Source: an uncultured Bacteroidales bacterium
GTDB taxonomy: Bacteria > Bacteroidota > Bacteroidia > Bacteroidales > JAEINX01
Length of the DNA stretch: 64,000 bases
Assembly: GCA_964462015.1 (NCBI GenBank)
Contig: CAYWXI010000004.1
Span: 15,859 to 79,858, forward strand
Direction of reading: 5' to 3'
Shown: piece after piece, positions 631 to 54,573 of the stretch
Numbering within the stretch: the first letter of the stretch is position 1
Layout of the letters: each line of letters opens with the position of its first letter
The notes under the pieces: generated by a model
The model's database searches: none
What the model was told of the DNA's origin: nothing
Seen by the model: the letters and a program-made list of their open reading frames with translations, nothing else
Translations under genes and position numbers: made by a program

Positions 631-672
631 AAAAAACAAGGAACATTGAATAAGGAACAAGAAATCAGGAAT
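631..672. repeat. GAACAAG-word arm, left flank of the four-helix-bundle gene
   Basis: aaaaaacaaggaacattgaataaggaacaagaaatcaggaat. It is complementary in word content to 1067-1112 (654-665 pairs with 1067-1078 at 11/12). Confidence 0.6.
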
Positions 673-673: not shown

Positions 674-1027
674 TTACTGCTTAGCTGTTTCAATACTTTT
701 TAAATATATAGCTATCAATTCATTGTTTTCATTTATTATACTATCCATTTTATCAGGTTTTAATAATGGTTTTCTTTGGATGATTTTCAAGCAAATTCTT
801 GTTTCTCTTAGTTCTTTTAAAATAACTTTTAGTTTGTGTACAAAATCCTTTGTTGATTCAGCTGATTGGGCTTCGCCACAATTTAAAGCAGGGGAAGTTC
901 CACAACGGATTAATTGATTACCAATGTGGTTGCCCAACCTTGTATTTGGAAGAACCTCAACGATTTCACTAATTCGTATCGCAAAGTCGATTAATCTGTC
1001 TTCTAAGTCAAATTTTTTATTTGCCAT
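674..1027 (-). CDS. four-helix-bundle protein (23S rRNA intervening-sequence protein / Avd-like family)
   Basis: 117-aa ORF. Size and sequence (RLIDFAIRI...LPNTRLGNHIGNQLIRCGTSPALNCGEAQSAES..DFVHKL.I.LKELRET..CL) match the family as I remember it. Confidence 0.85.
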   Translation of the reverse strand: MANKKFDLEDRLIDFAIRISEIVEVLPNTRLGNHIGNQLIRCGTSPALNCGEAQSAESTKDFVHKLKVILKELRETRICLKIIQRKPLLKPDKMDSIINENNELIAIYLKSIETAKQ

Positions 1028-1066: not shown

Positions 1067-1112
1067 ATTTCTTGTTTCTTGTTTCTTGTTTCTTGTTTTT
1101 GTTCCTAATTCG
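1067..1112. repeat. CTTGTTT-word arm, right flank of the four-helix-bundle gene (complement of the left arm words)
   Basis: atttcttgtttcttgtttcttgtttcttgtttttgttcctaattcg. Tandem ttcttgt units. Confidence 0.6.
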
Positions 1113-1182
1113 TTATTCATCATTTTACAGATACGAAGGTACATAAACCAATGAATTATTCCTTTTTTTAAAATATGATGTT

Positions 1183-3454: not shown

Positions 3455-3540
3455 TGTTCATCTATAAGCTTATAAAAAGACACGAATTTCACAAATTTAC
3501 ACGAATCTAAACTTTTTTGGCTTGTCCAGATTAGGAATGA

Positions 3541-3576: not shown

Positions 3577-3642
3577 TCTCCTATAGCCGCTTTTACCAAT
3601 CTGGAAAATCGTAACAGACTATGTTGTTCAAATGATGTTTTG

Positions 3643-3700
3643 TCATCGAATTACACTAATTGAACGAATTAAAATTCGTATAATTCGTTCAATTCGATGA
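3643..3700. repeat. ACGAATT-word hairpin (8 + 12 bp stem with a 9-nt bulge, 9-nt loop)
   Basis: tcatcgaa[ttacactaa]ttgaacgaatta-aaattcgta-taattcgttcaattcgatga. Base pairing checked by hand. Confidence 0.6.
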
Positions 3701-3752
3701 TAAATATTTCCGCTTGAAATTAGTGGGAAAAATCTTTTCCGGTTTGTTTGGT

Positions 3753-5015
3753 TTATGTTTTTTGTTTTTTCTTTTTTGCTGCCGGAAAAAGAATGTTATT
3801 TAAAATCAATCGATAGCCTGTTGAGTTTGGATGTAAATTCAAATCTGTCGGGGGATCACCGATAAAGTGATGATAATCTTCGGGATCGTGTCCGCCGTAG
3901 AATGTCCAGGTACCCTTACCAAATTCGCCATGAATATACCTCACCTCATTTGAAGCCTTATTTTCGCCCATTATCAAAGCATCGGATTTTAAATTATCAG
4001 CATTAAAAGCCGTTGTTTGTCCCATAAAACCTTTTACGACTGATTCATGATTTTGGCATAACATAGTTGGAACCGGATCCCATTTTGCAGAAAAATCAAA
4101 TAGTGTAAAAAAATCATTGTTTTGCCTTTGATTTTTTGGACGTGTTTGAGTTACATCAATTGAGGAAATCTCGTATTCATAGGGATTAGTGCTGATTGTA
4201 AAATTGGTAAAAGCAATGCATTTATTGAAATCCAATTTTTCCTGAGCATTCGGATCAGCTCCATCACCATCAAACATCACATCACAAATATCAATACCTT
4301 CGGCTGCCAATGCAACATCAAAACTATCTCCTGCCGAACACATTGCAAACAAATATCCTCCACCGGCAACAAACTCTTTTATTTTATTTGCTACGGCCAA
4401 TTTGCATTGCGATACTTTACTATACCCCAATTTATGAGCAATTTCTTCGGAAGCTTTTACATCCTCAATATACCATTGATTATTTTTATATCTTGACCAA
4501 AACTTTCCATATTGTCCTGTGAAATCTTCGTGGTGAAGGTGTAACCAATCGTATAAAGGTAGTACGCCACTAATAATTTCTTCATCATAAATTACATCAT
4601 AAGGAATTTCGGCATAAGTGAGAGCCATTGTAACAGCATCATCCCAGGGTTGTTTATTTTTGGGAGAATATATTGCAATTTTTGGTGCTTTATGCAATTT
4701 TACTTCATCCATATTTATTTCGGGGTAGGAAATCTCCTGCAAAATTGCAGTTGATTGAACATCGGCAATTACCTGATAAGTAACACCCCGAATAATACAT
4801 TCATCTTCAAATATCTGATTATATTTAAACATATAGCTTCCCCCTCTATAGTTTAGTAACCAACTAATTTCAATATCGTGTTGTAACACCCAGTATGCTA
4901 CTCCATAAGCTTTTAGGTGATCTTTTTGAGTGTCGTCCATTGGGATAAGCAAATATGCTCCCTGGCTAAAAAGTATTGAGAATAAAAATATTGAAAGTAA
5001 AAATATTCGTTTCAT
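3753..5015 (-). CDS. secreted conserved protein of unknown function
   Basis: 420-aa ORF with signal peptide MKRIFLLSIFLFSILFSQG. Homologs are, as I recall, often auto-annotated asparagine synthetase B, which I cannot support from motifs. Confidence 0.6.
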   Translation of the reverse strand: MKRIFLLSIFLFSILFSQGAYLLIPMDDTQKDHLKAYGVAYWVLQHDIEISWLLNYRGGSYMFKYNQIFEDECIIRGVTYQVIADVQSTAILQEISYPEINMDEVKLHKAPKIAIYSPKNKQPWDDAVTMALTYAEIPYDVIYDEEIISGVLPLYDWLHLHHEDFTGQYGKFWSRYKNNQWYIEDVKASEEIAHKLGYSKVSQCKLAVANKIKEFVAGGGYLFAMCSAGDSFDVALAAEGIDICDVMFDGDGADPNAQEKLDFNKCIAFTNFTISTNPYEYEISSIDVTQTRPKNQRQNNDFFTLFDFSAKWDPVPTMLCQNHESVVKGFMGQTTAFNADNLKSDALIMGENKASNEVRYIHGEFGKGTWTFYGGHDPEDYHHFIGDPPTDLNLHPNSTGYRLILNNILFPAAKKKKQKT

Positions 5016-10107: not shown

Positions 10108-10177
10108 CTGTTAATATTTTTGTAACTGGCGCATATTTAAAAATTTGCGATTTTATTAAAAATTTGGTCTTCCCCCA

Positions 10178-10197
10178 AATTTCCAATTTCTAATTTC
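10178..10197 (-). repeat. (AATTTCY)3 heptamer tract, identical 20-mer to 18421-18440
   Basis: aatttccaatttctaatttc ends 3 nt from the stop codon of the upstream minus-strand GT4 gene (10201-10203). A local 8-bp hairpin pairs aaatttgg with ccaaattt. Confidence 0.7.
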
Positions 10198-10200: not shown

Positions 10201-11394
10201 TCAAATTTCTTCATAAAACTTAACTAATTTTTGAATAATTTTCTCATTATCATATTCTTCTTCAATTAATTTTCGTGCATTCAATCCAATGGTTTCGCAT
10301 AATTCTTTTAATTTTATACATTTTTCTATTTGATCAACAAATTCTTCCGGAGTATTTGCAATCAAAATATTTTTATTTTCTTCATAATGAATTCCTTCAG
10401 CACCTAATTTTGTCGAAATAATTGTTTTACCAAGTGCCATTCCTTCTATTATTTTAATTCGTATTCCGCTACCCGAAAATAAAGGTACTATCATAATAGC
10501 TTTGGAATTAATAAAATCCCGGGCACTTCCAACCTCGCCAACAACTTCAACATTAGTTTTTTTGTTGTTAATCAACCATTCGGGCATTTCTCTACCTGCA
10601 AGATAAAATTTCAGTTCAGGCATTTTTTTATTTATCAAATCCCAGGTTTTATTTAGAAACCAATCAATTCCTTCTTCATTTGGCATCCAGTTCATTGATC
10701 CTATGTGAAACAAAGAAGGAAATTCATATTCATCATTTGACAAATGAAATTTATTCAGATTAATTCCAAAAGGAATATCAGTAATTGGCGTTTTCGTGCC
10801 TGTTTTTTTAAAAAAAACGGCATCGGTTTTTGTAATTGCAGCTATTCCGTCATACTTTTCTAAAGCCTCAAGCTCATAATTTTTAAGAGTTTTGCTAAGA
10901 TGAGATAAATAAAATTTCTTAATCGGATTTTTAGTAGTTTGAGTAATTCTATCCCAAATTATATGCTCAATATTATGGGCACGCAAAACAATTTTTGCAT
11001 TTGAGTGTTTACGAATTGTTTCAATATAAGGAGTAACATAAAGCGTTTCTAATTGAATTATATCGTATGTATTATTGTTAAGAATCTCAATGATTTTTTC
11101 GTCAAATTCTTTAGAAATAAATCTTTGAACATGATAGGATTTGGAAGAAAAAAGATTTAAAAAAGCATCTAACGGTTTTATTCTTAGATCAAGAAAAACA
11201 CCTTCTATTTGTGTTTTTTCTTTATAGTCATCAGGAATAGAATTAATATCGACGGAATATTTATAAGAATTAACTGCAAGAACCTTTACTTTATGGCCCG
11301 AATCAACTAATCCCTCAACAATAGTGTTCATAGCAATCGGGCCTCCTTCTTTTGGAGGATATGGTGATTTATTACAAATCAAAAGAATATTCAT
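10201..11394 (-). CDS. glycosyltransferase family 4 (GT-B)
   Basis: 397 aa. C-terminal MIVPLFSGSGIRIKIIEGMALGKTIIST motif. Confidence 0.85.
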   Translation of the reverse strand: MNILLICNKSPYPPKEGGPIAMNTIVEGLVDSGHKVKVLAVNSYKYSVDINSIPDDYKEKTQIEGVFLDLRIKPLDAFLNLFSSKSYHVQRFISKEFDEKIIEILNNNTYDIIQLETLYVTPYIETIRKHSNAKIVLRAHNIEHIIWDRITQTTKNPIKKFYLSHLSKTLKNYELEALEKYDGIAAITKTDAVFFKKTGTKTPITDIPFGINLNKFHLSNDEYEFPSLFHIGSMNWMPNEEGIDWFLNKTWDLINKKMPELKFYLAGREMPEWLINNKKTNVEVVGEVGSARDFINSKAIMIVPLFSGSGIRIKIIEGMALGKTIISTKLGAEGIHYEENKNILIANTPEEFVDQIEKCIKLKELCETIGLNARKLIEEEYDNEKIIQKLVKFYEEI

Positions 11395-14064: not shown

Positions 14065-15627
14065 CTAATTACCCAAAATCATTTTTCGCTTTACGTTTTG
14101 TTTTTCAGTTGATAGTGAAAAATAATAAATACCGGGGGCAAGATTATATTTTTGTGCATTAAACTGTTTTTCATATTTTCCGGCAGGCAAAAATTCATTA
14201 TTGATAATTGATGTAATTTTTCTTCCAAACATATCAAAAACCGATAAACTTACAACAGAGTGCTCTCTTAACTTAAATTTGAACCATGTATTATCAGAAA
14301 ATGGATTTGGATAATTTTGTTCTAAAGCAAAAGGAACAGACTCGAAATTATCAATTCCAACCCATTCGGAGTCAACTATTGCTGCCCAGACACTTCTTAC
14401 ACTATTTTCCATTCTTATCCAAACAGGCCGAATTACATTATTGTGTACTACAATGTTATTGTAGTCGCCGAAAAAGAGATTGGAATTTGGGATAAATGGC
14501 GACTCGCTGATTTTGAAATTTACAAATGTTTCTCCTCCATCTTTTGAAACAGCCATATAAACATCAGTAGAAGGATCATCATATTCACGTCTATCATAAT
14601 AAACAAAATAAATATAGCCTGTAATTTGGTCAACTGTCATCCATGTAAAAAATTGTTGCTTTCCGGCAGGATCATCATTTACCCGTTTTACATCACCCCA
14701 GGTTTCACCTCCGTCGGTGGATTTGATAAACCAAACGTCGGTGTCATCTATACCATTTCTTTGATCCGACCAATTTATATAGATGTTTCCATGAAATTCA
14801 CCATTACTTAAATCACAAACTGTTACAGGCAATCCATTGCAGCGGTAAATACCCGGGATTTCATAGGCCCATCCGTCAGGAATATCCGTTACAAAAATAT
14901 CGTCATCTAACCAGGTTTCTCCCTGATCAAGTGATTTATCGAAGACAAGGCCCAAAGGCCCGGCCCAGGAAACATATATTTCGCCGTTTGGCCCGACAGC
15001 CGGAACTGCACCCTCAACAGTATTATCATCATCAATGCAATCACCTGAAACCTGATTAATTTGCATGGCATCACTCCATGTTTCACCGGCATCTGTTGAT
15101 TTGGAAAACATTATATTGCTTTTATCCAAAGGATTTGGACTACCGTAATCATCAAACTGTGTCCAGGTAACATATATGTTGTTATTTGTTCGATCGACAA
15201 TTGCCCATTCTTTATCCTGGGCCTTAGTTCCATTCAAACCCATATAAGTCCCATTATTCCAAACTCCTCCGGGTTCATCAACTTTTTGGCAAACAATTCT
15301 GTCTATCCAGCTTCCCGATTGTGGATTCGATAAATGGAAAAAATAGAAACTTCCGGTAGTATCAGTAATGATGCAAGGATCTCCCCAAACACCATATTCA
15401 GGGGAAACTAAAGTTCCGGCAATCCAGTTATATCCACCATCTGTCGAATAAAAATATTTATTAGTATTGGCCCCTACTATCATTTGATCAGTGTTTTTTA
15501 AGTTTAAATAAATAGAAGGTTCATTTGGCCCATTGACATCACTTATCATTATATTTAAATGATATTGAGCTTGTGTGCTAATTACATAACATAAACTCAT
15601 TAAAATAAAAAGATATAGTTTTTTCAT
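14065..15627 (-). CDS. secreted BNR/Asp-box repeat (sialidase-like beta-propeller) protein with T9SS C-terminal sorting domain
   Basis: 520 aa. Signal peptide, Asp-boxes STDAGETWS, SLDQGETWL, STDGGETWG, SKDGGETF, and a C-terminal NYPNPF...YYFSL...KMIL sorting domain. Confidence 0.85.
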   Translation of the reverse strand: MKKLYLFILMSLCYVISTQAQYHLNIMISDVNGPNEPSIYLNLKNTDQMIVGANTNKYFYSTDGGYNWIAGTLVSPEYGVWGDPCIITDTTGSFYFFHLSNPQSGSWIDRIVCQKVDEPGGVWNNGTYMGLNGTKAQDKEWAIVDRTNNNIYVTWTQFDDYGSPNPLDKSNIMFSKSTDAGETWSDAMQINQVSGDCIDDDNTVEGAVPAVGPNGEIYVSWAGPLGLVFDKSLDQGETWLDDDIFVTDIPDGWAYEIPGIYRCNGLPVTVCDLSNGEFHGNIYINWSDQRNGIDDTDVWFIKSTDGGETWGDVKRVNDDPAGKQQFFTWMTVDQITGYIYFVYYDRREYDDPSTDVYMAVSKDGGETFVNFKISESPFIPNSNLFFGDYNNIVVHNNVIRPVWIRMENSVRSVWAAIVDSEWVGIDNFESVPFALEQNYPNPFSDNTWFKFKLREHSVVSLSVFDMFGRKITSIINNEFLPAGKYEKQFNAQKYNLAPGIYYFSLSTEKQNVKRKMILGN

Positions 15628-17495: not shown

Positions 17496-17606
17496 TCCTC
17501 AATCTTGTTTATCGAATTGTTAATTAGTTGTTCCATAATAATTGCCTTTTACATAAGGCAAAAACTATAAAAAATTGCATTATGCAAAAGGCAATTTAAC
17601 GATATT

Positions 17607-18374
17607 TTATTTCTCCAACCACGCCTTAAAACTCTTCACTTTTTCGCGACTTACAATAATATCTTCATCGTTTTTTACTTTTAATTCAATTTTCAGGCGG
17701 CTGTTTGAATAGCTGATTATGTCGGAAATTGCTTTTAAATTAATAATATATTTTCTGTTTACTCTGAAAAATTCATCGGGATTTATAAGGCTTTCAATTT
17801 GTTCTAAAGAATAATCCAAAACATAATTATTGTTTTCACTTGTTTTTAAAAAACTTGCTTTTTCTAAGGAATAAAAACAACTGATGTCTTCAACCTGAAT
17901 AGATTTTATATGCTCGCCAACTTTTATCACAAAACGGCTTTTATATTCTTTTGTCAAAAGTTGCAAAACCTTATCGAAGGTTAAGTTTTTTGATGAAATA
18001 TTTTCAGGTTTCTTCTCAAAATATATTTTTTTAAACTTTTCGATAGCAGTTGAAAGTTCATCAAAATCAATAGGTTTTAAAAGATAATCTATGCTGTTAA
18101 CCTTAAATGCTTTTATTGCATATTGGTCGTAGGCAGTTGTAAAAATTATCGGGCTGGTGATTAGTGTTTTCTCGAAAATTTCGAAACTTAAACCATCGGC
18201 CAACTGAATATCCATAAAAACCAGGTCGGGAGGTGGGTTTGAATTAAACCATTTAACACTTTTTTCAACAGTATCGAATTTACCGAGAATTTCTACTTCA
18301 GGATCGTATTTAAAGATAAGTTCGAGTAAACGTTTGACAGCCAGTTGTTCGTCTTCGATTATAATTATTTTCAT
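17607..18374 (-). CDS. LytTR-family response regulator
   Basis: 255 aa. REC domain (DLVFMDIQLADG), C-terminal LytTR DNA-binding domain (FFRVNRKYIINL). Confidence 0.9.
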   Translation of the reverse strand: MKIIIIEDEQLAVKRLLELIFKYDPEVEILGKFDTVEKSVKWFNSNPPPDLVFMDIQLADGLSFEIFEKTLITSPIIFTTAYDQYAIKAFKVNSIDYLLKPIDFDELSTAIEKFKKIYFEKKPENISSKNLTFDKVLQLLTKEYKSRFVIKVGEHIKSIQVEDISCFYSLEKASFLKTSENNNYVLDYSLEQIESLINPDEFFRVNRKYIINLKAISDIISYSNSRLKIELKVKNDEDIIVSREKVKSFKAWLEK

Positions 18375-18388: not shown

Positions 18389-18440
18389 GAAATTAGAAAT
18401 TGGAAATTCAAGAGAGTCCAAATTTCCAATTTCTAATTTC
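18389..18440 (-). repeat. perfect 20-bp stem / 12-nt loop hairpin in the kinase-regulator intercistronic gap
   Basis: gaaattagaaattggaaatt (18389-18408) and aatttccaatttctaatttc (18421-18440) are exact reverse complements. The loop is caagagagtcca. Confidence 0.9.
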
Positions 18441-18445
18441 AAGTT

Positions 18446-19528
18446 TCATTTTTTCAATATTAAAGGAATTTTCACAACGAATTCTTTTGGCTCCGACCCT
18501 ACATTTTCGGTTTCCGGTTGTTCTACAACAACTTCCTCTTTTGAAAGATATTTATACCTTAATTTAATATTTTCCAATCCAACATGGTTATCCCTTTTTT
18601 CATCATTCTTGTTTTCCTTGATGGTTTTCTTGATCTGCAAATTATTCTTAACAATAATGTGTTTATTATCCTTGAATATATCAATAGTCAAAGGTTTTTC
18701 TTTAGTAATGATATTATGCTTAATAGCATTTTCAACCAACAACTGAATCGACAACGGAATCACCATTATGTTTCCGGAATTGTTTAAATTGATATTTATT
18801 CTAAGGTTTTCACTGAACCGGATTTTTTGAAGAAAACAGTAATTATTAACAAAATCTATTTCGGTTTTAAGCGGCACAAGTTCAACATCTTTGACTTCTA
18901 ACACATAGCGATATACTTCCGACAATTGTTTAATAAACTCAACTGCTCTATCCTGATCGACATAAACTAATGATGACAAAGTATTCAAACTATTAAATAA
19001 AAAATGTGGATTCACCTGGTTTTTCAATGATTCGTATTCTAAAGACAATTTTTCGCGTTTTAAAATTTCTTCGTTAGTAACAGATATTCGCCATTGTTTG
19101 AAAAATTCGATTGAATAAAGAACAAAAATAATAATGATTGTAATCATCATTTGGATTACAAAAATCCAGTACCCGCCATGCTTGAAAATAAAATCATAAA
19201 AATTGTCTCCATGATAAAGCCCAAACCACAAATAATTTACTATAATTATTGTAATTGACGAAAATACAAGCATTATAATGATATGAACAAATATTCGTTT
19301 CTTTGGATTATCTTCCCATTTAACTATACGATCAATAAAGAGTTCAGGAAGTGTATTTGCTTCTAAAAGTGAAAAACCTATTATAAATGAGTAAAGTAAA
19401 TTGTTGGTAAAAAATTCAATAGTAAGATTTGATAAATTGGAAAAAAACAAAGAAAAACATAAACCAATTAAAGTTACTATAATTGTTACTCGTATATGCT
19501 TGTAAACGACCTGTTTAGTAATTTTCAT
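18446..19528 (-). CDS. LytS/YehU-type sensor histidine kinase
   Basis: 360 aa. Multiple TM helices, His_kinase region NPHFLFNSLN, C-terminal ATPase region (NAIKHN...GLENI). Confidence 0.85.
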   Translation of the reverse strand: MKITKQVVYKHIRVTIIVTLIGLCFSLFFSNLSNLTIEFFTNNLLYSFIIGFSLLEANTLPELFIDRIVKWEDNPKKRIFVHIIIMLVFSSITIIIVNYLWFGLYHGDNFYDFIFKHGGYWIFVIQMMITIIIIFVLYSIEFFKQWRISVTNEEILKREKLSLEYESLKNQVNPHFLFNSLNTLSSLVYVDQDRAVEFIKQLSEVYRYVLEVKDVELVPLKTEIDFVNNYCFLQKIRFSENLRININLNNSGNIMVIPLSIQLLVENAIKHNIITKEKPLTIDIFKDNKHIIVKNNLQIKKTIKENKNDEKRDNHVGLENIKLRYKYLSKEEVVVEQPETENVGSEPKEFVVKIPLILKK

Positions 19529-19587
19529 CTTTCATGATTATTGGGTGATAAATTTATAAAAATTTGTTAATATTGAATTTATAAAAC

Positions 19588-19694
19588 CTGAAGTCTTCAG
19601 TCGTCAGTCTGCAATCCTCAATCCACATACCGCCAACTGTTGATTGTTGACCGGACTGCCAACTGAAGACTGATGACTGCCGACTTCCAACTTC
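19588..19694. repeat. GAAGTC/CAGTC word inverted-repeat region abutting a stop codon
   Basis: agtcttcagt (19592-19601) pairs with actgaagact (19662-19671). The surrounding words are gtcagtc, gactgcc, gacttcc. The tract ends at the base before the stop of 19695..20330. Confidence 0.7.
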
Positions 19695-29541: not shown

Positions 29542-31296
29542 TCATTCCAATTCTTTCATTATCTTCAATTTCAATTCATCCAATTGTTCTTCGGAAATTG
29601 ATGAAGGCGAGTCAATCATCACATCTCTTCCCGAATTGTTTTTCGGGAAAGCAATAAATTCACGGATTGAATCCTGTCCGCCAAATAATGCAACCAAACG
29701 ATCGAAACCAAGAGCAATACCACCATGAGGGGGTGCCCCGAATTCAAAAGCATTCATTAAAAAACCAAATTGATCCTGGGCTTCTTCGTCGGTGAAACCA
29801 AGATGTTTAAACATTAGTTTTTGAAGATCACGATCATGAATACGAATCGAACCTCCACCAATTTCAACACCATTAATAACCATATCATAAGCATTTGCAC
29901 GAACATTTCCGGGAGCGGTTTCCAGCAATTCTATATCCTCTGCTTTTGGTGACGTGAAAGGATGGTGCATTGCGTGATAACGTTTAGTGTCTTCATCCCA
30001 TTCGAGTAACGGAAAATCTACAACCCAAAGAGGGCAATAGCTCAACGGATCGCGAAGTTCAAGGCGATTGCCCATTTCGAGACGTAATTCACAAAGGGCT
30101 TTTCGAGTGTGATCAGTCTCACCTGCAAGAACGAGTAAAAGGTCACCGGGTTTTGCACTAAATTTCTCAGCCCAGAGTTTCAATGCTTCCTGATCAAAAA
30201 ACTTATCTACAGATGATTTAAAACTTCCGTCTTCATTACATTTTACATATACCAAACCATTTGCACCAATCTGGGGCTTTTTAACAAAATTAGTTAATTT
30301 ATCTATTTGTTTTCTTGAGTATGTTCCGCAATTTTTCGCACAAATACCAACAATCAATTCAGCATCATCGAAAACTTTAAAATTCTTTCCTTTAGCAACA
30401 TCGTTTAATTCTGCAAATTTCATCCCGAAACGAATATCAGGTTTATCCGAGCCATAATATTTCATTGCTTCAGAATAAGACATCACCGGAAATTTTTCAA
30501 CTTCAATTCCTTTGACTTCTCTAAAAAGATATTTTGCAAGTCCTTCGAAAGTTTCCAAAACATCATTCTGATCAACAAATGACATTTCGCAGTCGATTTG
30601 AGTGAATTCCGGTTGGCGGTCAGCTCTCAGGTCCTCATCACGAAAACATTTTACAATCTGATAATAACGATCATAGCCGGCGATCATTAATAATTGCTTA
30701 AATGTTTGAGGTGATTGAGGTAAAGCATAAAATTCTCCTTCATTCATACGAGAAGGTACAACAAAATCTCTGGCACCTTCAGGTGTTGATTTAATTAAAT
30801 AAGGAGTTTCGATTTCAAAAAATCCTATTGAATCAAGGTATTTTCTCGTTTCAATCGACATGCGATGCCTGAGTTCCATGTTTTTTTTCAAGGGATTTCG
30901 ACGTAAGTCTAGATAACGATATTTCATCCTTAGTTCTTCACCGCCATCGGTATTATCCTCAATAGTAAAAGGAGGTAGTTTTGATTTATTTAAAACTTCG
31001 AGTTTTTCAACAATTATCTCAATTTCTCCTGTAGGGATTTTCAGGTTTTTATTGCTACGTTCTTCAATTTCACCACTTACACAAATAACAAATTCTCGTC
31101 CGAGTTTCCGGGCTTCTTCGCATAAAGCTGAATTTTTTTCCATATTAAAAACCAATTGGGTAATTCCATATCGGTCGCGAAGATCAATAAAAGTCATTCC
31201 ACCCAAATCTCTCGATTTCTGTATCCATCCGCATAAAGTTGTTTTCTGTCCTACATTTTTTTTACTTAATTCTCCGCAATTATGTGATCGTAACAT
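29542..31296 (-). CDS. aspS: aspartate--tRNA ligase
   Basis: 584 aa. OB-fold N-terminus and class II motifs ([34 protein letters not shown]). Confidence 0.97.
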
Positions 31297-31646: not shown

Positions 31647-32078
31647 TACTGATAAAAATTGGTATTACAAAAATAGTAAATTATAGTTTAATGAAACTTG
31701 AGATTAGAAATTAGTCCTGAGCATTCAGCAATTTTCAATTGGTAATTGATTATTGTCTATTGCCTGCCCATCTGAAATATAATGAAGGCGGGATTATTAA
31801 AAAATTGTTATTCAGTATGATAAATGAATTATGGTGATAATTTTACTTTTTGTGTATTTTGAGTCTTAGAGCCTTAGTGGCTAATTTTTCTCTAATTGCC
31901 ACAAAGACACCGAGGCACTAAGGTTCATAAAGAAAACATCAAAAAAACAACCATCATATTTTATATTGGTATTTACGTTTTTAATAGTTTGATTATTTAT
32001 TCATTACCATATTTTTTGCTAATTATCTTATCTATAAAAAATCACTGAGTATTCGGGAAGAAATTCAGAAAAAATCCA

Positions 32079-32105
32079 AATTTCTAATTTCTAATTTCCA
32101 ATTTC
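32079..32105 (-). repeat. (AATTTCY)4 heptamer tract directly abutting a stop codon
   Basis: aatttctaatttctaatttccaatttc ends at the base before the ClC gene stop (32106-32108). Same word family as 10178-10197 and 18389-18440. Confidence 0.7.
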
Positions 32106-33881
32106 TTAGTCATCAGAGAACTCTTTAAGGATTTTCCTATAGCTTGAAAAAACATTTGCTCTGGAAATAAATCCAAGATATTTTCCATCTTTCACAACTG
32201 CCAGATTATATTTTCCCGAGTGCTGAAATCTTTTAGCTACCTGATCCATCGACTCTTCAGGATCGACAATCGAAGAAGGAACTATCATAAGGTTTTGAAC
32301 AAAAGTAATATCGTATAAATCAGGGTTAAACATAATATTCCTGATGTCGTCGAGGCGGATAATCCCGAAAAAGTTATTGTCTTTATCAACAACAGGATAA
32401 ATATTTCTTTTTGAATTGGAAATTATTTTTACCAGGTCACCAAGCGTTGCCTGCGGAGAAACCGAAGTAAAATTCCTTTCAATCAACTTAGTTACTTTCA
32501 TCCGCGACAGAGCTGCTTTATCTTTATGATGCGTTATTAATTCGCCGCGTTTTGCCAATTGATGCGTATAAACCGAATTAGTTACAAATAATTTTATTGT
32601 TGCGTAAGAAATTGTTGAGGTAATCATTAAAGGAACAAAAAGCTTATATCCGCCTGTGATCTCAGCAATAAGGAAAATTGCCGTTAGCGGGGCATGCAAA
32701 ACTCCAGCAATTAATCCTCCCATCCCGACAAGGGCAAAATTTCCGGTTGAAATATCTCCAAAATTCAGATGATTAACTAAGCTTGCAAACAGGAGTCCGG
32801 TAAAAGCACCCATAAAAAGTGTAGGAGCGAAAATACCACCAATTCCGCCGGCACCGAAAGTTATGGATGTTGCTATAACTTTGAAAAAAATTATCAAAAA
32901 CAATAGAAGAAAGACGATATAAATATTATCTCTAAATGAATAAAAAATACTATTGTTAAATAATGGATCAAAATTACCATGCAATGAAGCGTTTATAGCT
33001 TCATAACCTTCACCGTAAAGCGATGGAAAGAAAAATATCAGTATTCCGAGACAAAGCCCGCCAAAAATCACTTTTGAATACCATTTTTTAATTTTAAAAA
33101 AATTAAATTCGATAAACATATACATTCTTGTAAAGTAAACGGAAATTAATCCGGCAAGAATTCCTAAAACTATGAAATAGGGTGAATCTTTTAGAAGAAA
33201 TTCTTCGGTTATTTCATAAGGATACAAAACTGCTTGTCCGAGAAAGAAATATGAAGTTAACACGGCAGTAGCTGACGCAATTAACAAAGGAATAACCGAT
33301 GCTGCTGTTAAGTCGATCATAATAACTTCAACAGCAAAAACTACCGCAGCAATTGGCGATTTAAAAATTGCAGCCATAGCCGCAGCACTTGCAAGCCCCA
33401 ACAACAAAGTGATTTGCTTATAACTAAGACGAAACATTTGCCCAATATTTGAACCTATTGCAGCTCCTGTTGCAACAGTCGGGCCCTCAAGTCCTACCGA
33501 TCCACCAAAACCAACTGTTAATGTACTTGTAATTATCGACGAAAAAATATTGTGCCGTTTAATTATTCCGTGATTTTTCGAAATGGCAAACAAAACACTT
33601 GGTATCCCGTGGCCAACATGCTGACGAACGATGAATTTTATATAAATAACTGCAATTAAAATGCCTATTGCCGGATATGCGAAATATAAATAATTATGAT
33701 AATTGGCAGCAAAACTACTTGTCAGCAGTTCCTTAATGAGGTGAACTGAATTTTTAATAATTACTGCTCCCAGACCGGCAAGAATTCCGATAACAACACT
33801 AAGAATCATAATAAAATTCTTAATGCTAATATGCTTAACTCTCCAAATCAAAAATCGCCCTAATAAACTCTGTTTTTTCAT
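32106..33881 (-). CDS. ClC-family chloride channel/antiporter with C-terminal CBS pair
   Basis: 591 aa. GLEGPTV and GGIFAPTLFMG selectivity motifs, with two CBS-like segments at the C-terminus. Confidence 0.9.
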   Translation of the reverse strand: MKKQSLLGRFLIWRVKHISIKNFIMILSVVIGILAGLGAVIIKNSVHLIKELLTSSFAANYHNYLYFAYPAIGILIAVIYIKFIVRQHVGHGIPSVLFAISKNHGIIKRHNIFSSIITSTLTVGFGGSVGLEGPTVATGAAIGSNIGQMFRLSYKQITLLLGLASAAAMAAIFKSPIAAVVFAVEVIMIDLTAASVIPLLIASATAVLTSYFFLGQAVLYPYEITEEFLLKDSPYFIVLGILAGLISVYFTRMYMFIEFNFFKIKKWYSKVIFGGLCLGILIFFFPSLYGEGYEAINASLHGNFDPLFNNSIFYSFRDNIYIVFLLLFLIIFFKVIATSITFGAGGIGGIFAPTLFMGAFTGLLFASLVNHLNFGDISTGNFALVGMGGLIAGVLHAPLTAIFLIAEITGGYKLFVPLMITSTISYATIKLFVTNSVYTHQLAKRGELITHHKDKAALSRMKVTKLIERNFTSVSPQATLGDLVKIISNSKRNIYPVVDKDNNFFGIIRLDDIRNIMFNPDLYDITFVQNLMIVPSSIVDPEESMDQVAKRFQHSGKYNLAVVKDGKYLGFISRANVFSSYRKILKEFSDD

Positions 33882-45764: not shown

Positions 45765-48700
45765 GTGGATGATGAAATATCTGGTTTAACCAATATAGGT
45801 TTTACATTTTCTTATAACGGTATTGATTATACACAATTTAAGGCAAGTTCAAATGGTTTTGTGAACTTAGGAGGAGCGCTTTCAGATTCTTATTGGTCCA
45901 ACGATCTGGAAAGCAGTACTAAAAAAGAAATATTGGCACCCCTCTGGGATGATCTTGAAACTAATACCGCTGGAAGTATCGGATATGAATTAAGCGGGTC
46001 ATCAGGAAGCTATATTTTGAAAATTGAGTTCAAAAATTTAGACTTCAATGGAGATTATGGAACAAATATGTATTTCCAGGTTTGGCTTTATGAAGCAACC
46101 TACGAAGTTGAATTCCGGTATGGAGCAATGGGTACGTGGACGGGGCAAAGTGCAAGTATCGGCCTAAATGATGAAACTGATGATCGTTTTATGAGTATTA
46201 CCCCTGCTGAGACACCTACATATAATACTGAAACAGTGAACAATTCAATAGCTACAAATGATTATCTCACAAACGGACTTAGATACAGTTTTAATAAAGG
46301 AAGCGATTGGTATTGTTGGAAAGGAGCAAGCAACACCGATTGGGCAACAGAAGCTAATTGGTATGGGGGTGCGTTTCCAACTACCTCACAACATGTTACA
46401 ATATCAAAGGGGAAGTCCTATGATCCCATTATAGATGAGACCGCTGCATGCAATGACTTGGGTATTGGAGATGGCACTAAAGTAACGGTGAATACTGGTA
46501 CTGATCTTACAGTTAATGATGATATTTGGGTATGTAGCGGTGGTGAGTTTGAATTGAATGGAGGTACGGTGACAGTTAGTGATGGTTTTAGATCAGTAGC
46601 TAATAGCACTGTTGACATTAATGGAGGCACATTAAATATCGGAGGCGACTGGGAGCTAAATTCTAGTGACGAATCAGCAAAGGGAACAATAGAATTATCA
46701 GGAGGAACTATTAATATTACTGATGATTGCTGTTTTTCCTCGAGTGATGTGACCGGCTCAATGACAGGTGATTTTCAAATGACAATAGGGGATGATTTTA
46801 AGATTAGTTCCAACACATGGAGTGATCCTACTGGAGGTACAATTATATTAACTGCATCAAAAGATGGTAGTATGTATTTATTCTCGAACAATGCTTCGTC
46901 TGATGTCATTGCCTATAACCTTACGATCAACGGATCAGGTAATAACTTTTATATGGCATCTACCGGTGATCTCGTTGATCAGGGCATACATATTTTTAAC
47001 AACTTCACGCTTACTACCGGTACTGTTGAAACAAAAGATGCCGATGGACATACTGATAAATTGGATGTTAATGGAACTTTTAGTATGGGAAGCGGCTCTC
47101 ATTTTAAAGATGCCATAGAATCTACTGATACGTATAGTGTGGGTAGTTTTAGTTTTGATGCAGCCAGTACATATGAGTTTTACGGTACTGCTCAAAATAT
47201 TCCAGCAACTACCTTTGGACATCTCAATGTTAGTGCGGCCGGGACAAAGTCAATAACAGGAAATACAACTGCTGCAGGAAACCTCTCAATAACAGCAGGT
47301 GTGTTAAGTGCTACTGAGACCAATGGATTTACTATAACAGGAACCACTACCAACAGTGTGGGAGCAGCAGGTTTAGTTGTAGAGTCAGACGCCTCCGGTA
47401 CCGGTTCAGTTATTTTTGGTGGTACTGTAACAGGAGATGTTACAGTTGAACGCTTTCTCACCCACGACAGATGGCATTACATAGCAGGCCAAAGCAATAT
47501 TTCAGGAAATTTCAGCACATTGAGTATGGGATTGACAGGAGGAGTAAATAACGACCAGTTTTACCGCTGGGATGAAAGCCTGGATTGGGGAGGAAATGTC
47601 GGGAACTGGGTTGATATCCTAAACGGCCCTAATGGTAATGACCCAACAATGGCAACTGAAGGTTTTTTGGCATGTAAAGGATATGCTATCAATTATATTA
47701 CCACCGATAAAACTTTAAGCCTAAGCGGAGCACCTTATACTGTCGATAAGAGTATCAACCTTACAAAAACTACAGGAAGCTTAAATGAAGGTTGTAACCT
47801 TGTTGGCAATCCTTTTACTTCCACTCTTGCAGTAAATACAGATGCCGAGACTACCAACAACTTTCTTACACAGAATACAGATGTCCTTGATGCATCTTAT
47901 GTAGCTGTTTATTTGTGGAACGAACAGGCTGGCTGGACCTATCCGGACAATAATGATTATGTTACCATTAATAATTCAAGCGGAGCAACATATATTCAAG
48001 CGGGACAGGCCTTTATGGTAGTAGCAAAAACCAATGGTGCATCTTTATCTTTTCCGGCAGCAATCAGAAAGCATGGATCAGCCTCTTTCTATAAAAATCA
48101 GGTTAACGATGAAGTTTCAAGGTTTGAACTCGGTGTATTTAACCCTGAAGGACAAACCAACTCAGTACTTATTGCTTTTATCCCCGAAATGACAAACGGC
48201 CTTGATCCTTCGTATGATGCCGGAAAAATGAGCGGCAATGCCAGTCTTTCACTCTACACAAAACTTGTTGAAGATAACGGCCATAATTTTGCAATCCAGG
48301 CCCTGCCACCATTAGATGGTACTACTTCTGTGAAATTAGGTTTAAGGGCAGAACTCACCGGAACGTATAAGTTTGAACCTGTTAATGTTGAAAACTTTAA
48401 TGAGAGTGTTTCCATTAAACTGGAAGATAAACAAACCGGTGCAATGATTGATTTAACAACCATTCCTGAATATTCATTTGGGATAAATGAAGCCGGAACC
48501 TTTGATGACAGGTTTGTGCTGCACTTTAAAGGGGCTGTCGGTATTGAGGAAGTGCTGGAAAGCAATAAAATACGTTTTTATGTTTACGACAATAAACTTT
48601 ATATTATTGATAAAGAACTGAAAAACGCAACAATTCAGTTATTCAATATGCTTGGGCAACCGGTGATGAAAAAACAATATTCACAAGCAGTAAATGTCAT

Positions 48701-48785
48701 TGATTTAAATCTATCGAAGGGATATTATATTGTTAGAATTATTACGAATAAGATGTCAGTAAAGGGGAAAATATATGTTGAGTAG
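45765..48785 (+). CDS. T9SS-sorted surface protein paralog 1 (NIDO-like N-terminal region, beta-helix-like repeats, T9SS CTD); probably 5'-truncated
   Basis: 1006-aa ORF with only a GTG start, no signal peptide, and a frame open back to 45714 without an ATG. The C-terminal 70 aa is a type A T9SS sorting domain. Confidence 0.6.
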   Translation: MDDEISGLTNIGFTFSYNGIDYTQFKASSNGFVNLGGALSDSYWSNDLESSTKKEILAPLWDDLETNTAGSIGYELSGSSGSYILKIEFKNLDFNGDYGTNMYFQVWLYEATYEVEFRYGAMGTWTGQSASIGLNDETDDRFMSITPAETPTYNTETVNNSIATNDYLTNGLRYSFNKGSDWYCWKGASNTDWATEANWYGGAFPTTSQHVTISKGKSYDPIIDETAACNDLGIGDGTKVTVNTGTDLTVNDDIWVCSGGEFELNGGTVTVSDGFRSVANSTVDINGGTLNIGGDWELNSSDESAKGTIELSGGTINITDDCCFSSSDVTGSMTGDFQMTIGDDFKISSNTWSDPTGGTIILTASKDGSMYLFSNNASSDVIAYNLTINGSGNNFYMASTGDLVDQGIHIFNNFTLTTGTVETKDADGHTDKLDVNGTFSMGSGSHFKDAIESTDTYSVGSFSFDAASTYEFYGTAQNIPATTFGHLNVSAAGTKSITGNTTAAGNLSITAGVLSATETNGFTITGTTTNSVGAAGLVVESDASGTGSVIFGGTVTGDVTVERFLTHDRWHYIAGQSNISGNFSTLSMGLTGGVNNDQFYRWDESLDWGGNVGNWVDILNGPNGNDPTMATEGFLACKGYAINYITTDKTLSLSGAPYTVDKSINLTKTTGSLNEGCNLVGNPFTSTLAVNTDAETTNNFLTQNTDVLDASYVAVYLWNEQAGWTYPDNNDYVTINNSSGATYIQAGQAFMVVAKTNGASLSFPAAIRKHGSASFYKNQVNDEVSRFELGVFNPEGQTNSVLIAFIPEMTNGLDPSYDAGKMSGNASLSLYTKLVEDNGHNFAIQALPPLDGTTSVKLGLRAELTGTYKFEPVNVENFNESVSIKLEDKQTGAMIDLTTIPEYSFGINEAGTFDDRFVLHFKGAVGIEEVLESNKIRFYVYDNKLYIIDKELKNATIQLFNMLGQPVMKKQYSQAVNVIDLNLSKGYYIVRIITNKMSVKGKIYVE

Positions 48786-48800
48786 GAATAGGATGCAGGA
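47392..48800 (+). repeat. 1.4-kb direct repeat, copy 1 (shared 3' region of the T9SS paralogs)
   Basis: Aligns with 49748-51156 at a constant offset of 2356 nt with no indels. The translated copies differ at only 5 of the last 430 aa. Confidence 0.9.
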
Positions 48801-48999
48801 TACAGGATACAAGTTACAGGATACAAGATACTTGAAACCCGAAACTATAAATTTTATCAAAAAAAGAGAAGAATTTATAATAAGTAAGATAAATATTTTT
48901 TCATGCGTTTGCCCTGATAATACCACTTTTTATAATATATCTAAATTAAGGAAAGTTTATTGCAATTCAAAAAAAAATTTGTATATTAGCACAAATGTT

Positions 49000-51141
49000 A
49001 TGCTTTTGATTATGAAATCATTTATAATATTTTTTGCAATGATATTGCTTCCAGGTTTGATGCAATCCCAAACCATAGCCGGAGGCAATCCCGGTTTTGA
49101 ATCTGACTTTAGTGGATGGACACGGTTGATAAATTGGGGGGCAGGGACTACACATATTTCTATTTCTACTTCAAACCCTCAGAGTGGTTCGAAAGCAGCT
49201 TTTTTTGATGCAGGACCTACTTATTATGAACAACTTTATGCAGACATAACCGGCTTAACTATATCAACAAAATATACATTGTCTTTTTATGCTGCAGGAG
49301 AAGAAGCTGATTTTTATGTTGGCCCAACCTCTAACGTATATGAAGGGACTTATTATTATGTAGATTGTGGCAGTTCAGGACTAACCTACTATTTACAAGT
49401 TGTGGGCTTTACAGCTACCGCAACTACAATGAGAATCTGGTTTGATTTTTACCCCGCTATGGATATGTATGTTGATAATTTTGTAATAACTGAAACGCCT
49501 GTATGGGAAGGAACTACCAACACTGATTGGGCAACCGGAACAAATTGGAGTACTGGAACTGAGCCCGGCTCATCTGATTATATTGTTTCGGTACCAAATA
49601 CTACAAATGATCCTATTATTTCAACAACTGTTTCTGTATATGAAATTAGTATTGAGAGCGGGGCAGATTTTACTATTGCTTATAATGGCAATTTAACATC
49701 ATTAAATAGTTTTACGAACGCTGGAACTTTCACTATTAAATCAACATCTTCCGGAACCGGTTCCGTTATAATAGAAGGGAGTGCTACAGGAGATGTTACC
49801 GTAGAGCGCTTTCTTACCCACGACAGATGGCATTACATAGCAGGCCAAAGCAATATTTCTGGAAATTTCAGCACATTGAGTATGGGGCTGACAGGTGGAG
49901 TAAATAACGACCAGTTTTATCGCTGGGATGAAAGTCTGGATTGGGGAGGAAATATCGGGAACTGGGTTGATATCCTAAACGGCCCTAATGGTAATGACCC
50001 AACAATGGCAACTGAAGGTTTTTTGGCATGTAAAGGATATGCTATCAATTATATTACCACCGATAAAACTTTAAGCCTAAGCGGAGCACCTTATACTGTC
50101 GATAAGAGTATCAACCTTACAAAAACTACAGGAAGCTTAAATGAAGGTTGTAACCTTGTTGGCAATCCTTTTACTTCCACTCTTGCAGTAAATACAGATG
50201 CCGAGACTACCAACAACTTTCTTACACAGAATACAGATGTCCTTGATGCATCTTATGTAGCTGTTTATTTGTGGAACGAACAGGCTGGCTGGACCTATCC
50301 GGACAATAATGATTATGTTACCATTAATAATTCAAGCGGAGCAACATATATTCAAGCGGGACAGGCCTTTATGGTAGTAGCAAAAACCAATGGTGCATCT
50401 TTATCTTTTCCGGCAGCAATCAGAAAGCATGGATCAGCCTCTTTCTATAAAAATCAGGTTAACGATGAAGTTTCAAGGTTTGAACTCGGTGTATTTAACC
50501 CTGAAGGACAAACCAACTCAGTACTTATTGCTTTTATCCCCGAAATGACAAACGGCCTTGATCCTTCGTATGATGCCGGAAAAATGAGCGGCAATGCCAG
50601 TCTTTCACTCTACACAAAACTTGTTGAAGATAACGGCCATAATTTTGCAATCCAGGCCCTGCCACCATTAGATGGTACTACTTCTGTGAAATTAGGTTTA
50701 AGGGCAGAACTCACCGGAACGTATAAGTTTGAACCTGTTAATGTTGAAAACTTTAATGAGAGTGTTTCCATTAAACTGGAAGATAAACAAACCGGTGCAA
50801 TGATTGATTTAACAACCATTCCTGAATATTCATTTGGGATAAATGAAGCCGGAACCTTTGATGACAGGTTTGTGCTGCACTTTAAAGGGGCTGTCGGTAT
50901 TGAGGAAGTGCTGGAAAGCAATAAAATACGTTTTTATGTTTACGACAATAAACTTTATATTATTGATAAAGAACTGAAAAACGCAACAATTCAGTTATTC
51001 AATATGCTTGGGCAACCGGTGATGAAAAAACAATATTCACAAGCAGTAAATGCCATTGATTTAAATCTATCGAAGGGATATTATATTGTAAGAATAATTA
51101 CGGATAAGATGTATGTAAGTGGGAAAATATATGTTGAGTAG
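49000..51141 (+). CDS. T9SS-sorted surface protein paralog 2 (CBM4/9-like N-terminal domain, shared C-terminal region, T9SS CTD)
   Basis: Start moved to ATG 49000/49012 (MLLIMKSFIIFFAMILLPGLMQSQ signal peptide). GNPGFESDFSGW...MYVDNFVITE is a CBM-like domain. The C-terminus is near-identical to paralog 1. Confidence 0.8.
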   Translation: MLLIMKSFIIFFAMILLPGLMQSQTIAGGNPGFESDFSGWTRLINWGAGTTHISISTSNPQSGSKAAFFDAGPTYYEQLYADITGLTISTKYTLSFYAAGEEADFYVGPTSNVYEGTYYYVDCGSSGLTYYLQVVGFTATATTMRIWFDFYPAMDMYVDNFVITETPVWEGTTNTDWATGTNWSTGTEPGSSDYIVSVPNTTNDPIISTTVSVYEISIESGADFTIAYNGNLTSLNSFTNAGTFTIKSTSSGTGSVIIEGSATGDVTVERFLTHDRWHYIAGQSNISGNFSTLSMGLTGGVNNDQFYRWDESLDWGGNIGNWVDILNGPNGNDPTMATEGFLACKGYAINYITTDKTLSLSGAPYTVDKSINLTKTTGSLNEGCNLVGNPFTSTLAVNTDAETTNNFLTQNTDVLDASYVAVYLWNEQAGWTYPDNNDYVTINNSSGATYIQAGQAFMVVAKTNGASLSFPAAIRKHGSASFYKNQVNDEVSRFELGVFNPEGQTNSVLIAFIPEMTNGLDPSYDAGKMSGNASLSLYTKLVEDNGHNFAIQALPPLDGTTSVKLGLRAELTGTYKFEPVNVENFNESVSIKLEDKQTGAMIDLTTIPEYSFGINEAGTFDDRFVLHFKGAVGIEEVLESNKIRFYVYDNKLYIIDKELKNATIQLFNMLGQPVMKKQYSQAVNAIDLNLSKGYYIVRIITDKMYVSGKIYVE

Positions 51142-52075: not shown

Positions 52076-52349
52076 AATATATGTTTTTCTTTGTGAAACT
52101 TTGAGTTTTCTTCGTGATTCTTTGCCGCAATAACTATTTCAAAGAAGTATCAAAGAAAATACATCGTTACACAAAAGTATGATAAAAAACGATTTATTAT
52201 AATATTCTGAACATAAAAATATTTCGTTATTTTATATAAATAATGAACACAGAAAAAGGAACATCGAATAATGAATTTTTATCAGCATTCATCATTCCTT
52301 GTTCAATATTCGATATTTTTTAAAAACAAATTCAAACCTTGAAATTTCA

Positions 52350-54437: not shown

Positions 54438-54573
54438 AGACCGAAGTCAGAAGACTGAAGTCGGAAGAAAATTACTGTTGGTTATTAGTTTATTATCCTT
54501 TTAATGATACTTAATATATTAATGCTCCAAATATTTTGGTGTGTTAACTTCTGACTTCGGTCTTCCGACTTCG
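54438..54573. repeat. GAAGTC-word inverted repeats flanking an 80-nt AT-rich spacer
   Basis: 54438-54453 pairs perfectly (16 bp) with 54548-54563. 54457-54467 pairs perfectly (11 bp) with 54562-54572. The two helices are in the same order on both sides. Confidence 0.8.

Follow-up and report, generated by a model that had tools for sequence, protein, structure and literature searches.

A perfect hairpin between a histidine kinase gene and its LytTR regulator gene belongs to a dispersed family of inverted heptamer repeats, typically arranged around a four-helix-bundle gene

The kinase–regulator junction and its hairpin

The window analysed here is a stretch of 64,000 nucleotides from an uncultured Bacteroidales bacterium (GenBank assembly GCA_964462015.1, contig CAYWXI010000004.1, positions 15,859 to 79,858), with a G+C content of 30–37% and with proteins whose closest relatives are found in Bacteroidales metagenome-assembled genomes (MAGs). 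On its minus strand, the gene of a LytS/YesM-type sensor histidine kinase is followed by that of a LytTR response regulator, and the 71-nt gap between the two holds a 52-nt palindrome made of perfect 20-nt reverse complements, GAAATTAGAAATTGGAAATT (18389–18408) and AATTTCCAATTTCTAATTTC (18421–18440), with a 12-nt spacer (Table 1). A preliminary description of this DNA had regarded the palindrome as a possible device of the two-component operon. All of its coordinates and sequences for the 20-bp hairpin, the 12-nt loop and the 71-nt gap are correct, and the hairpin is real and resides within a co-directional two-gene unit, but it is not specific to this operon, as close relatives carry three unrelated palindrome families at the same junction, and its arms belong to GAA-phased heptamers that are dispersed through the window and flank four-helix-bundle genes here and in many metagenomes. 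The hairpin thus belongs to a family of inverted heptamer repeats that is dispersed, located just after stop codons and typically built around a four-helix-bundle gene, and was probably not made for the kinase–regulator operon.

Table 1. Features of the inverted heptamer-repeat family and its host genes in the window.
Feature	Coordinates	Strand	Details
Gene-carrying cassette, 3' arm	631..666	-	complementary to 5' arm
Inverted pair of GAA-phased tracts	641-657 / 1069-1118		117-aa gene 674..1027 between arms
Four-helix-bundle / 23S rRNA intervening-sequence protein gene	674..1027	-	PF05635 E 7.5e-13; TIGR02436 E 2e-20; PDB 2RLD E 8e-15
Gene-carrying cassette, 5' arm	1067..1118	-	GAATAAC-GAATTAG-GAACAAA-AACAAGA x4
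Second copy of the arm, between two GT4 genes	10160..10197	-	23-nt arm (10175-10197) in common with the hairpin
Downstream host gene, LytTR response regulator	17607..18374	-	PF00072 + PF04397
Hairpin, left arm	18389..18408		GAAATTA-GAAATTG-GAAATT (+ strand reading)
Hairpin, spacer/loop	18409..18420		12 nt; + strand CAAGAGAGTCCA, mRNA UGGACUCUCUUG; G-U pairs can cut the loop to 6 nt
Hairpin, right arm	18421..18440		+ strand AATTTCC-AATTTCT-AATTTC; minus strand GAAATTA-GAAATTG-GAAATT
Inverted pair of GAA-phased tracts	18389-18405 / 18424-18447		12-nt loop between arms (kinase-regulator hairpin)
GAA-phased mRNA-strand tract	18424..18447	-	GAAACTT-GAAATTA-GAAATTG-GAA, fourth unit included
Upstream host gene, LytS/YesM-type sensor histidine kinase	18446..19528	-	PF06580
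Inverted partner of the 32.1-kb arm	~31692..31714	+	GAAACTTGAGATTAGAAATTAG; 19/22 matched, 365 nt away
Third copy of the arm, abutting ClC stop codon	32079..32105	-	(GAAATTR)4 on the mRNA strand
Gene-less GAA-phased palindrome	52245..52311		tracts 52245-52275 / 52288-52311; 12-nt loop; units GAACATC, GAATAAT, GAACAAG
GAA-phased inverted pair	54443..54572		tracts 54443-54466 / 54549-54572; GAAGTCR units, 26-nt arms, 82-nt spacer, fold -51.9 kcal/mol

Both arms are internally repetitive, and Tandem Repeats Finder reports at least three tandem intergenic heptamers in each (18389-18408 and 18419-48, both of period 7). The first unit of the mRNA-strand tract starts within the kinase stop codon (T-GAAACTT), and the regulator start lies 14 nt downstream of the hairpin tract. 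Of the 79 short-range inverted repeats reported for the window, the 25 longest include one pair only, 18389/18421, whose arms are both longer than 14 nt and perfect. The minus-strand RNA is predicted to fold with −24.8 kcal/mol (z = −7.7; 0 of 200 shuffles equally stable), the 20-bp stem growing to 23 bp through G–U pairs, while the A-rich leader of the regulator between the stem and the AUG, CAAAAAACAAACAG, is predicted to be unpaired. The stem is AU-rich, with 4 G–C pairs among the 20 perfect ones, it is followed by CAAAAAAC and not by a U-tract, and the consensus scan called no terminator-like site at the hairpin, its sole regional call being 17561–17542. An intrinsic terminator was rejected on these grounds, and transcription most likely reads into the regulator. 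A search of the whole window against Rfam gave no family at gathering score and no rRNA, and the hairpin site itself drew sub-threshold matches to generic, miRNA-like hairpins only, so that a known RNA family was rejected as its identity. No sequence feature pointing to an effect on the transcript was found at the hairpin.

A second very stable hairpin (17540–17596, −25.5 kcal/mol, arms AATTGCCTTTTACATAAGGCAA / TTGCATTATGCAAAAGGCAATT) lies directly after the regulator stop, between the regulator and a convergent SDF transporter gene, and is the region's one terminator-like call. Logan contigs L001–L005 (SRR24302413, SRR8146442, SRR24302423, SRR8146443) all break at one point of the left arm, between ...GGAAATTTG and G, and L004 additionally begins within a CCCGCAGATT-type repeat. 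The shared break in four runs points to another copy or variant with about 30 nt in common there; inversion of the loop was rejected as its cause, since the break point is incompatible with a flipped spacer.

The heptamer family in the window

GAA-phased tracts, defined as GAA recurring at a 7-nt phase (GAANNNN) in at least three units, occur 14 times in the window, compared with 1.33 ± 1.17 in 100 dinucleotide shuffles (maximum 5), and eight of the 14 make four inward-facing inverted pairs. One of the four is the kinase–regulator hairpin, which has the period-7 units, the constant GAA and the inward-facing reverse complements of the family as well as its location shortly after a co-oriented stop codon. 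Another encloses a gene for a protein of the four-helix-bundle family encoded by the intervening sequences (IVSs) of 23S rRNA; the complementarity of the two arms of this cassette reaches a local alignment score of 38, compared with 20 on average and at most 30 in shuffles. The unit types of the gene-less palindrome at 52 kb also flank four-helix-bundle genes in metagenomes.

The hairpin arm itself recurs in the window. With at most one mismatch, AATTTCYAATTTC is found 11 times where 2.4 occurrences are expected, a number reached by 0 of 100 shuffles. As first described, the arm is identical at 10178–10197, 3 nt past the stop of a GT4 gene, the identity in fact extending over 23 nt (10175–10197 = 18418–18440), and (AATTTCY)4 at 32079–32105 abuts the stop codon of a ClC gene (32106–32108). 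These two copies had been taken for isolated half-sites, which is wrong because both have inverted partners, and this weakens the earlier suggestion of a tract that spreads on its own, apart from the hairpin. At 10.2 kb the partner has decayed, AAATTTGG (10160–10167) facing CCAAATTT (10175–10182) across the loop GGGAAGA in the mRNA sense, with a folded stem of 13 bp; at 32.1 kb the partner is more distant (Table 1). The partners at the other copies imply that the arm consensus takes in a GAACTT-like first heptamer (GAAACTT), the unit that overlaps the stop codon at the kinase. Within the 365 nt between the 31.7- and 32.1-kb arms lies a further palindrome, GCCACTAAGG... / ...CTTAGTG..GTGGC (31860–31930), and a similar palindrome at L080 (4350–4460) has a GAAATTR arm in its loop, suggesting that insertions are nested.

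Heptamer and octamer repeats of the window concentrate downstream of genes: a tandem detector found 7–8-mers in 9 of 40 3' flanks, 1 of 40 5' flanks and 0 of 846 intragenic windows. Strong folding is not general there, as the median 3'-flank fold (−8.05) is no stronger than that of intragenic controls (−9.15) and 5 of 40 flanks lie beyond the control 5th percentile; the proposition that hairpins after every stop are normal in this genome was therefore rejected.

Several further repeats were observed in the window. Tandem 7–8-nt repeats start 0–13 nt past seven stop codons, and most are rich in purines when read in the direction of the upstream gene; the 3' flanks with tandem 7–8-mers include those of genes 10201..11394, 14065..15627, 18446..19528, 29542..31296, 32106..33881, 45765..48785 and 48775..51141, among others, and the units include GAGATGGA, GGAGTGAT, AGGATAC and GAAGTCG. 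Upstream of the kinase, a (GAAGTYR)n tract abuts the stop of a gene for a 211-aa TPR-like protein (19530–19694, minus strand), and its position is kept with varying copy number in L125 (9875–9905), L127 (9906–9922) and L128 (9843–9859). The large adjacent open reading frames (ORFs) 45765..48785 and 48775..51141 have near-identical 3' ends and are probably paralogues; (AGGATAC)n-type heptamer tracts directly follow both (48790–48831 and 51154–51179), and the first of these tracts overlaps the start annotated for the second ORF. At 53696–54133, 10.4 copies of a 42-nt unit (81% match, with an 84-nt reading possible) overlap mechanical ORFs on both strands, and some 2 kb from there another 42-nt unit is present in 2.8 copies (51352–51463). 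Loops or spacers of exactly 12 nt recur across unrelated arm families, at 18409–18420 and 52276–52287 in the window and at the kinase–regulator junctions of L215, L127 and L131.

Four-helix-bundle genes and their flanks in metagenomes

Forty-one relatives of the window's four-helix-bundle protein were aligned, and 80 metagenome loci were chosen by two in-protein peptide motifs only, so that the flanks had no role in the selection; an iterative hidden Markov model was too narrow, with 4 matches. Read in the sense of the gene, at least three phased GAA are found upstream in 37 of 78 gene loci and at least three phased TTC downstream in 35 of 78, each compared with 2 of 613 control windows, and 26 of 76 loci have both. 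In 61 of 76 loci the two flanks are more complementary than any of 20 shuffles (median score 40, compared with 15 for the shuffles), and autocorrelation at period 7, where it peaks in the flanks, is 0.42 and 0.45 there and 0.235 inside the gene. Where GAA arms are missing from a gene locus, arms of another period-7 type take their place, for instance CAANNNN or GATTNNN, and the other arm families also include octamers.

The placement of these cassettes resembles that of the kinase–regulator hairpin. The upstream neighbour is co-oriented with the cassette in 50 of 61 gene loci, and the first phased-GAA tract begins −2 to 74 nt past the stop of the co-oriented neighbour. The arms usually consist of 3–6 units, and among 100 pairs of adjacent units from 37 arms, 85 have the same GAA and a difference in the other four bases, a pattern unlike simple slippage, although the constancy of GAA is partly imposed by the search pattern.

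A search for the four-helix-bundle family gave at least 8000 candidates, nearly all significant and many on short contigs. Two proteins that are 72–81% identical to the window protein, P0165 and P0122, carry the labels of a Methylococcaceae MAG and a Mangrovibacterium MAG, and most of the listed relatives lie on contigs shorter than 2 kb, which fits both horizontal spread and a breaking of assemblies at the repeats on either side.

GAAATTR-type arms across genomes

The arm type of the kinase–regulator hairpin is also found around such genes. A scan for (AATTTCY)3 with one genome per species gave at least 119 loci in many phyla. Among these, L023 (Sulfurovum) and L088 (Bacteroidetes) have inverted GAAATTR arms around intact PF05635 genes, and L048, L061 and L098 have such arms around truncated, frameshifted PF05635-type copies. 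The frameshift-corrected translations of L048 and L061 match PF05635 with E 5e-10, which passes the curated cut-off, and the N-terminal motif is also present in L114; the link between PF05635 and the tracts emerged from reading the frameshifted remnants. Gene-less GAAATTR hairpins with 10–52 nt between the arm cores account for 20 tract occurrences in several phyla, or about a dozen distinct hairpins since both arms were scored, and at these loci the loops retain an apparent ribosome-binding site and ATG of a lost gene. In 829 kb, six of seven four-helix-bundle-like genes abut tracts, near-tract DNA making up 14% of bases. An inverted partner is present for 31 of 130 tracts elsewhere; (AATTTCY)3 often occurs as a lone arm, and many of its Patescibacteria copies reside within long ORFs.

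In the Patescibacteria loci L015 (3852–3871), L104 (817–843) and others, (AATTTCC)n is read in frame in long ORFs, following a ...V(I/V)YEG... motif at the same place in two similar ORFs and giving NFQFPISNFQ-like low-complexity insertions. In Thermodesulfobacteriota and unclassified MAGs, inverted boxes containing CCGTGAACGG (GTAGCCGTTCACGGCTT ... AAGCCGTGAACGGCTAC) bracket GAAATTR hairpins (L084 1640–1760, L113 4420–4520, L111, L029, L061, L098 and L114); several of these bracketed hairpins lie on contigs of one MAG with a reported coverage of 226–946x.

Turnover at orthologous junctions

Comparison of orthologous junctions shows that the element between kinase and regulator changes rapidly. 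In L215 (kinase 78% identical), the junction carries a perfect GAAATTA-GAAATTA-GAAATT / 12 nt / AATTTCT-AATTTCT-AATTTC palindrome (z −7.5), in which compensatory G>A and C>T changes relative to the window leave the pairing perfect, whereas L128–130 (86%) have a decayed GAAATTR-type copy (z −1.9). An octamer-armed palindrome takes its place in L125 (91%, z −5.8), and an unrelated CCCGCAGATT...AATCTGCGGG palindrome in L127 (86%, z −6.7), a type that recurs in L131 (82%, z −8.4). Among these close relatives the regulators are 86–89% identical, and the junction palindromes belong to three unrelated families. In more distant orthologues, a PemK toxin–antitoxin pair is inserted (L212, kinase 47%, z −1.7 over the 140 nt after the kinase), or a 36-nt spacer shows no significant fold (L213, 46%). 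The L212 insertion, in which a 75-aa protein and the PemK toxin gene lie between kinase and regulator in otherwise the same gene order (3221–3789), implies that this junction accepts other selfish modules too.

A second junction tells a similar story. The gene cassette of the window occupies a 637-nt spacer between a methyltransferase gene and a NUDIX gene, a junction that is empty in L216 (37-nt spacer) and L217 (23-nt spacer) and that in L219 holds a gene-less AATTTC-type hairpin followed by a tail, TAATTAAAAATGCATTAACTAC. The same hairpin-plus-tail composite is present at the kinase junction of L128, and is therefore a dispersed element found at non-homologous sites.

Interpretation and alternatives

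The best explanation of the 52-nt palindrome, with a probability of roughly 0.6, is that it represents a "solo" form, devoid of a gene, within a family of IVS-like palindromes whose arms are inverted tandem heptamers. Full-length members comprise a 5' arm of (GAANNNN)n, an ORF of the PF05635/TIGR02436 family and a 3' arm of (NNNNTTC)n, which corresponds to the architecture of rRNA IVSs, but sited a few bases past the stop of a co-oriented protein gene. Such elements are gained, lost, truncated and replaced quickly, and the kinase–regulator junction is one landing spot among others. The operon mRNA would then carry a perfect, AU-rich helix of 20–23 bp that, like the stems of IVSs, is long enough for RNase III, and cleavage could part the kinase and regulator cistrons. 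Such cleavage between the cistrons is the best guess for any effect of the hairpin, although it may equally be a neutral, tolerated passenger, which is the main alternative to RNase III processing.

Several observations weigh against this explanation. RNase III cleavage is proposed purely by analogy. A four-helix-bundle remnant was neither detected in the junction hairpin nor recognisable in the 365 nt between the 31.7- and 32.1-kb arms, so that descent from a gene-carrying cassette is deduced from the architecture and from intermediates in other genomes, namely L048 and L061, where GAAATTR arms enclose truncated genes; a reverse order of events, with genes entering hairpin loops that already existed, fits just as well. 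Neither mobility machinery nor a target-site duplication nor a terminal signature was found, transposases having been sought only among the scanned genes: no RAYT gene occurs among the roughly one quarter of window genes scanned against Pfam, and no direct repeat is evident beside the arms (AAACTT on one side, CAAAAA on the other), although inverted arms and multiple copies are present. The word "mobile" would therefore rest on patterns of presence and absence only. Intact PF05635 was found in 2 of 78 tract-adjacent ORFs in a Pfam scan of the genome loci, and in viral contigs (AATTTCY)3 forms 68 stretches, compared with 62, 77 and 96 for three composition-matched permuted heptamers. Wide occurrence of the tract alone thus carries no weight, and its use as a cross-phylum signature sequence was dropped. 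Finally, five of six close relatives have a strong hairpin of some kind at the junction (z −5.8 to −8.4), directly past the kinase stop, while strong hairpins are not the rule in other 3' flanks of the window (5 of 40), and this retention leaves room for a selected role here.

That last observation also speaks for a possible, though clearly less probable, alternative in which the palindrome is a selected cis-regulatory stem-loop whose helix sets the relative expression of kinase and regulator through partial termination, processing or mRNA stabilisation, so that any palindrome would serve and its sequence could be swapped. The 12-nt loops of the window, L215, L127 and L131 would agree with this, as would the rank of the folds after the kinase and after the regulator as the most stable among the 3' flanks of 40 genes. 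The perfect arms of L215 could likewise reflect such a role: the perfect match of non-identical units, together with the compensatory change, implies either selection for pairing or a DNA-level correction of one arm by the other, and palindrome correction explains the change equally. The hairpin lacks both a U-tract and a terminator call, the L128 copy has decayed, and distant orthologues have a toxin–antitoxin insertion or no significant hairpin in its place. The same arm also lies after the GT4 and ClC genes, related palindromes occupy unrelated spacers, and the junction palindromes come from dispersed repeat families, the L128 element being found at the different L219 locus as well.

Somewhat less probable still is a reading in which the arms are primarily a phased array for a multimeric protein that binds single-stranded nucleic acid, the hairpin being secondary. 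A candidate is the four-helix-bundle protein itself, as a crystallised Xanthomonas relative of the IVS protein is a homopentameric toroid (according to the citation of Lin 2006 in PMC4990558) and PDB 2RLD comprises 5 chains. Variable units around a constant GAA, arms of usually 3–6 units, the concentration of mostly purine-rich tandem repeats in 3' flanks and the (GAAGTYR)n tract that abuts the stop upstream of the kinase in the window and three relatives would all suit a phased binding site. The constancy of GAA stems in part from the search pattern, however, other arm families are built of CAANNNN, GATTNNN or octamers, and the arms nearly always occur with their complement, which points to a duplex and not to a single-stranded site.

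A plain heptamer microsatellite made by slippage, in which the hairpin would be an accidental meeting of two tracts, is improbable. Permuted heptamers are as frequent as (AATTTCY)3 in viral contigs (62–96 compared with 68 stretches), and long pure arrays do exist (14 units in L049, 9 in L119), but slippage does not account for perfect 20-nt complements of non-identical units, in which A/G is mirrored as T/C and which no shuffle matched in folding, nor for inverted pairing four times in the window, at most four-helix-bundle loci and for almost a quarter of the tracts elsewhere. Least probable, and largely refuted, is an operator through which the downstream LytTR regulator would control its own gene and a small regulon, the GT4 and ClC genes among it. 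From the tract to the regulator start codon downstream the distance is 14 nt, and the 21 bp covered by three heptamers, or about two helical turns, resemble the direct-repeat sites of LytTR regulators. Against this, the palindrome is not conserved alongside regulators that are 86–89% identical, the sites lie past stop codons and not in promoter regions, and four-helix-bundle genes have the same arms around them in Sulfurovum, Thermodesulfobacteriota and other Bacteroidota.

The kinase–regulator hairpin is thus an ordinary member of a repeat family, and the interest lies in the family and in its link to the four-helix-bundle gene. It is tentatively proposed that PF05635 (S23p/Avd-like) genes of many phyla may be the cargo of an undescribed class of IVS-like cassettes, characterised by stems of constant-GAA heptamers, by placement just past co-oriented stops, which would need read-through transcription, and by decay to perfect hairpins; the pentameric protein would perhaps read the 7-nt-phased arms, and the stems would perhaps be RNase III sites through which operon transcripts are reshaped. 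A literature search that covered few subscription journals gave no paper that connects heptamer repeats with PF05635 genes, so an earlier description is possible. If the proposal is true, the abundant short heptamer repeats of many bacterial genomes would be tied to a very large family of four-helix-bundle proteins of unknown function, and rRNA IVSs would represent one branch, resident in rRNA, of a larger class of palindromic cassettes that live in the spacers of mRNAs. As regards annotation, perfect hairpins within operons of these Bacteroidales are likely to be members of repeat families and not bespoke regulators, although such hairpins may still cut or stabilise transcripts. In three public assemblies, contig ends also fall at these repeats.

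Comparison with known systems

The closest known counterparts are the IVSs of 23S rRNA in Coxiella burnetii and Leptospira, which carry the S23p ORF. With these the hairpin shares a long, near-perfect stem of terminal inverted repeats, and the stem–ORF–stem layout is also that of the window cassette (631–1118) and of most of the 80 metagenome loci. The IVSs reside in helix 9, 25 or 45 of 23S rRNA, in contrast to the spacer of protein genes after a stop codon, and the hairpin arms are tandem heptamers with a constant GAA. Compared with the ORF-bearing class, the junction hairpin has a 12-nt loop and no ORF, whereas an ORF is present in the window cassette, L023 and L088. Gene-less short forms are also known among rRNA IVSs. 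The Coxiella IVS forms a 28-bp stem of terminal inverted repeats around an ORF and is cut by RNase III; in full-length 23S rRNA IVSs the ORF in the loop belongs to the PF05635 family and is prone to decay, and the sporadic phyletic distribution of IVSs suggests horizontal transfer (PMC4990558).

Tandem heptamers have been described in another setting. TAACTGA repeats occur in Beggiatoaceae, Cyanobacteria and Bacteroidetes, in arrays just upstream of start codons, with 169 direct sets and one indirect; their function is unknown, an RNA-binding protein being suspected, and four-helix-bundle genes are mentioned 0 times in that paper (MacGregor 2015, PMC4679880). They have in common with the GAA arms the form of two to six or more intergenic heptamers near gene ends and a patchy spread that includes Bacteroidetes. 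They differ in the unit, and the GAA arms form inverted pairs after stop codons. The cyanobacterial STRR heptamers are reportedly a further case of tandem heptamer repeats (Mazel, 1990).

Two other classes share the location of the hairpin. Intrinsic terminators and attenuators are likewise stable stem-loops directly past a stop codon, but the stem considered here is AU-rich and is followed by CAAAAAACAAAC without a U-tract, and the next gene begins 14 nt downstream. Repetitive extragenic palindromes and bacterial interspersed mosaic elements (REP/BIME), the Correia elements of Neisseria, and repeats resembling miniature inverted-repeat transposable elements are dispersed palindromes in 3' and intercistronic spacers that are co-transcribed with their neighbours and whose site occupancy differs between strains, and Correia hairpins have been reported as RNase III substrates. 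The window hairpin differs from these in that its arms are internally repetitive heptamers, and in that the gene associated with its family encodes a four-helix-bundle protein and not a transposase.

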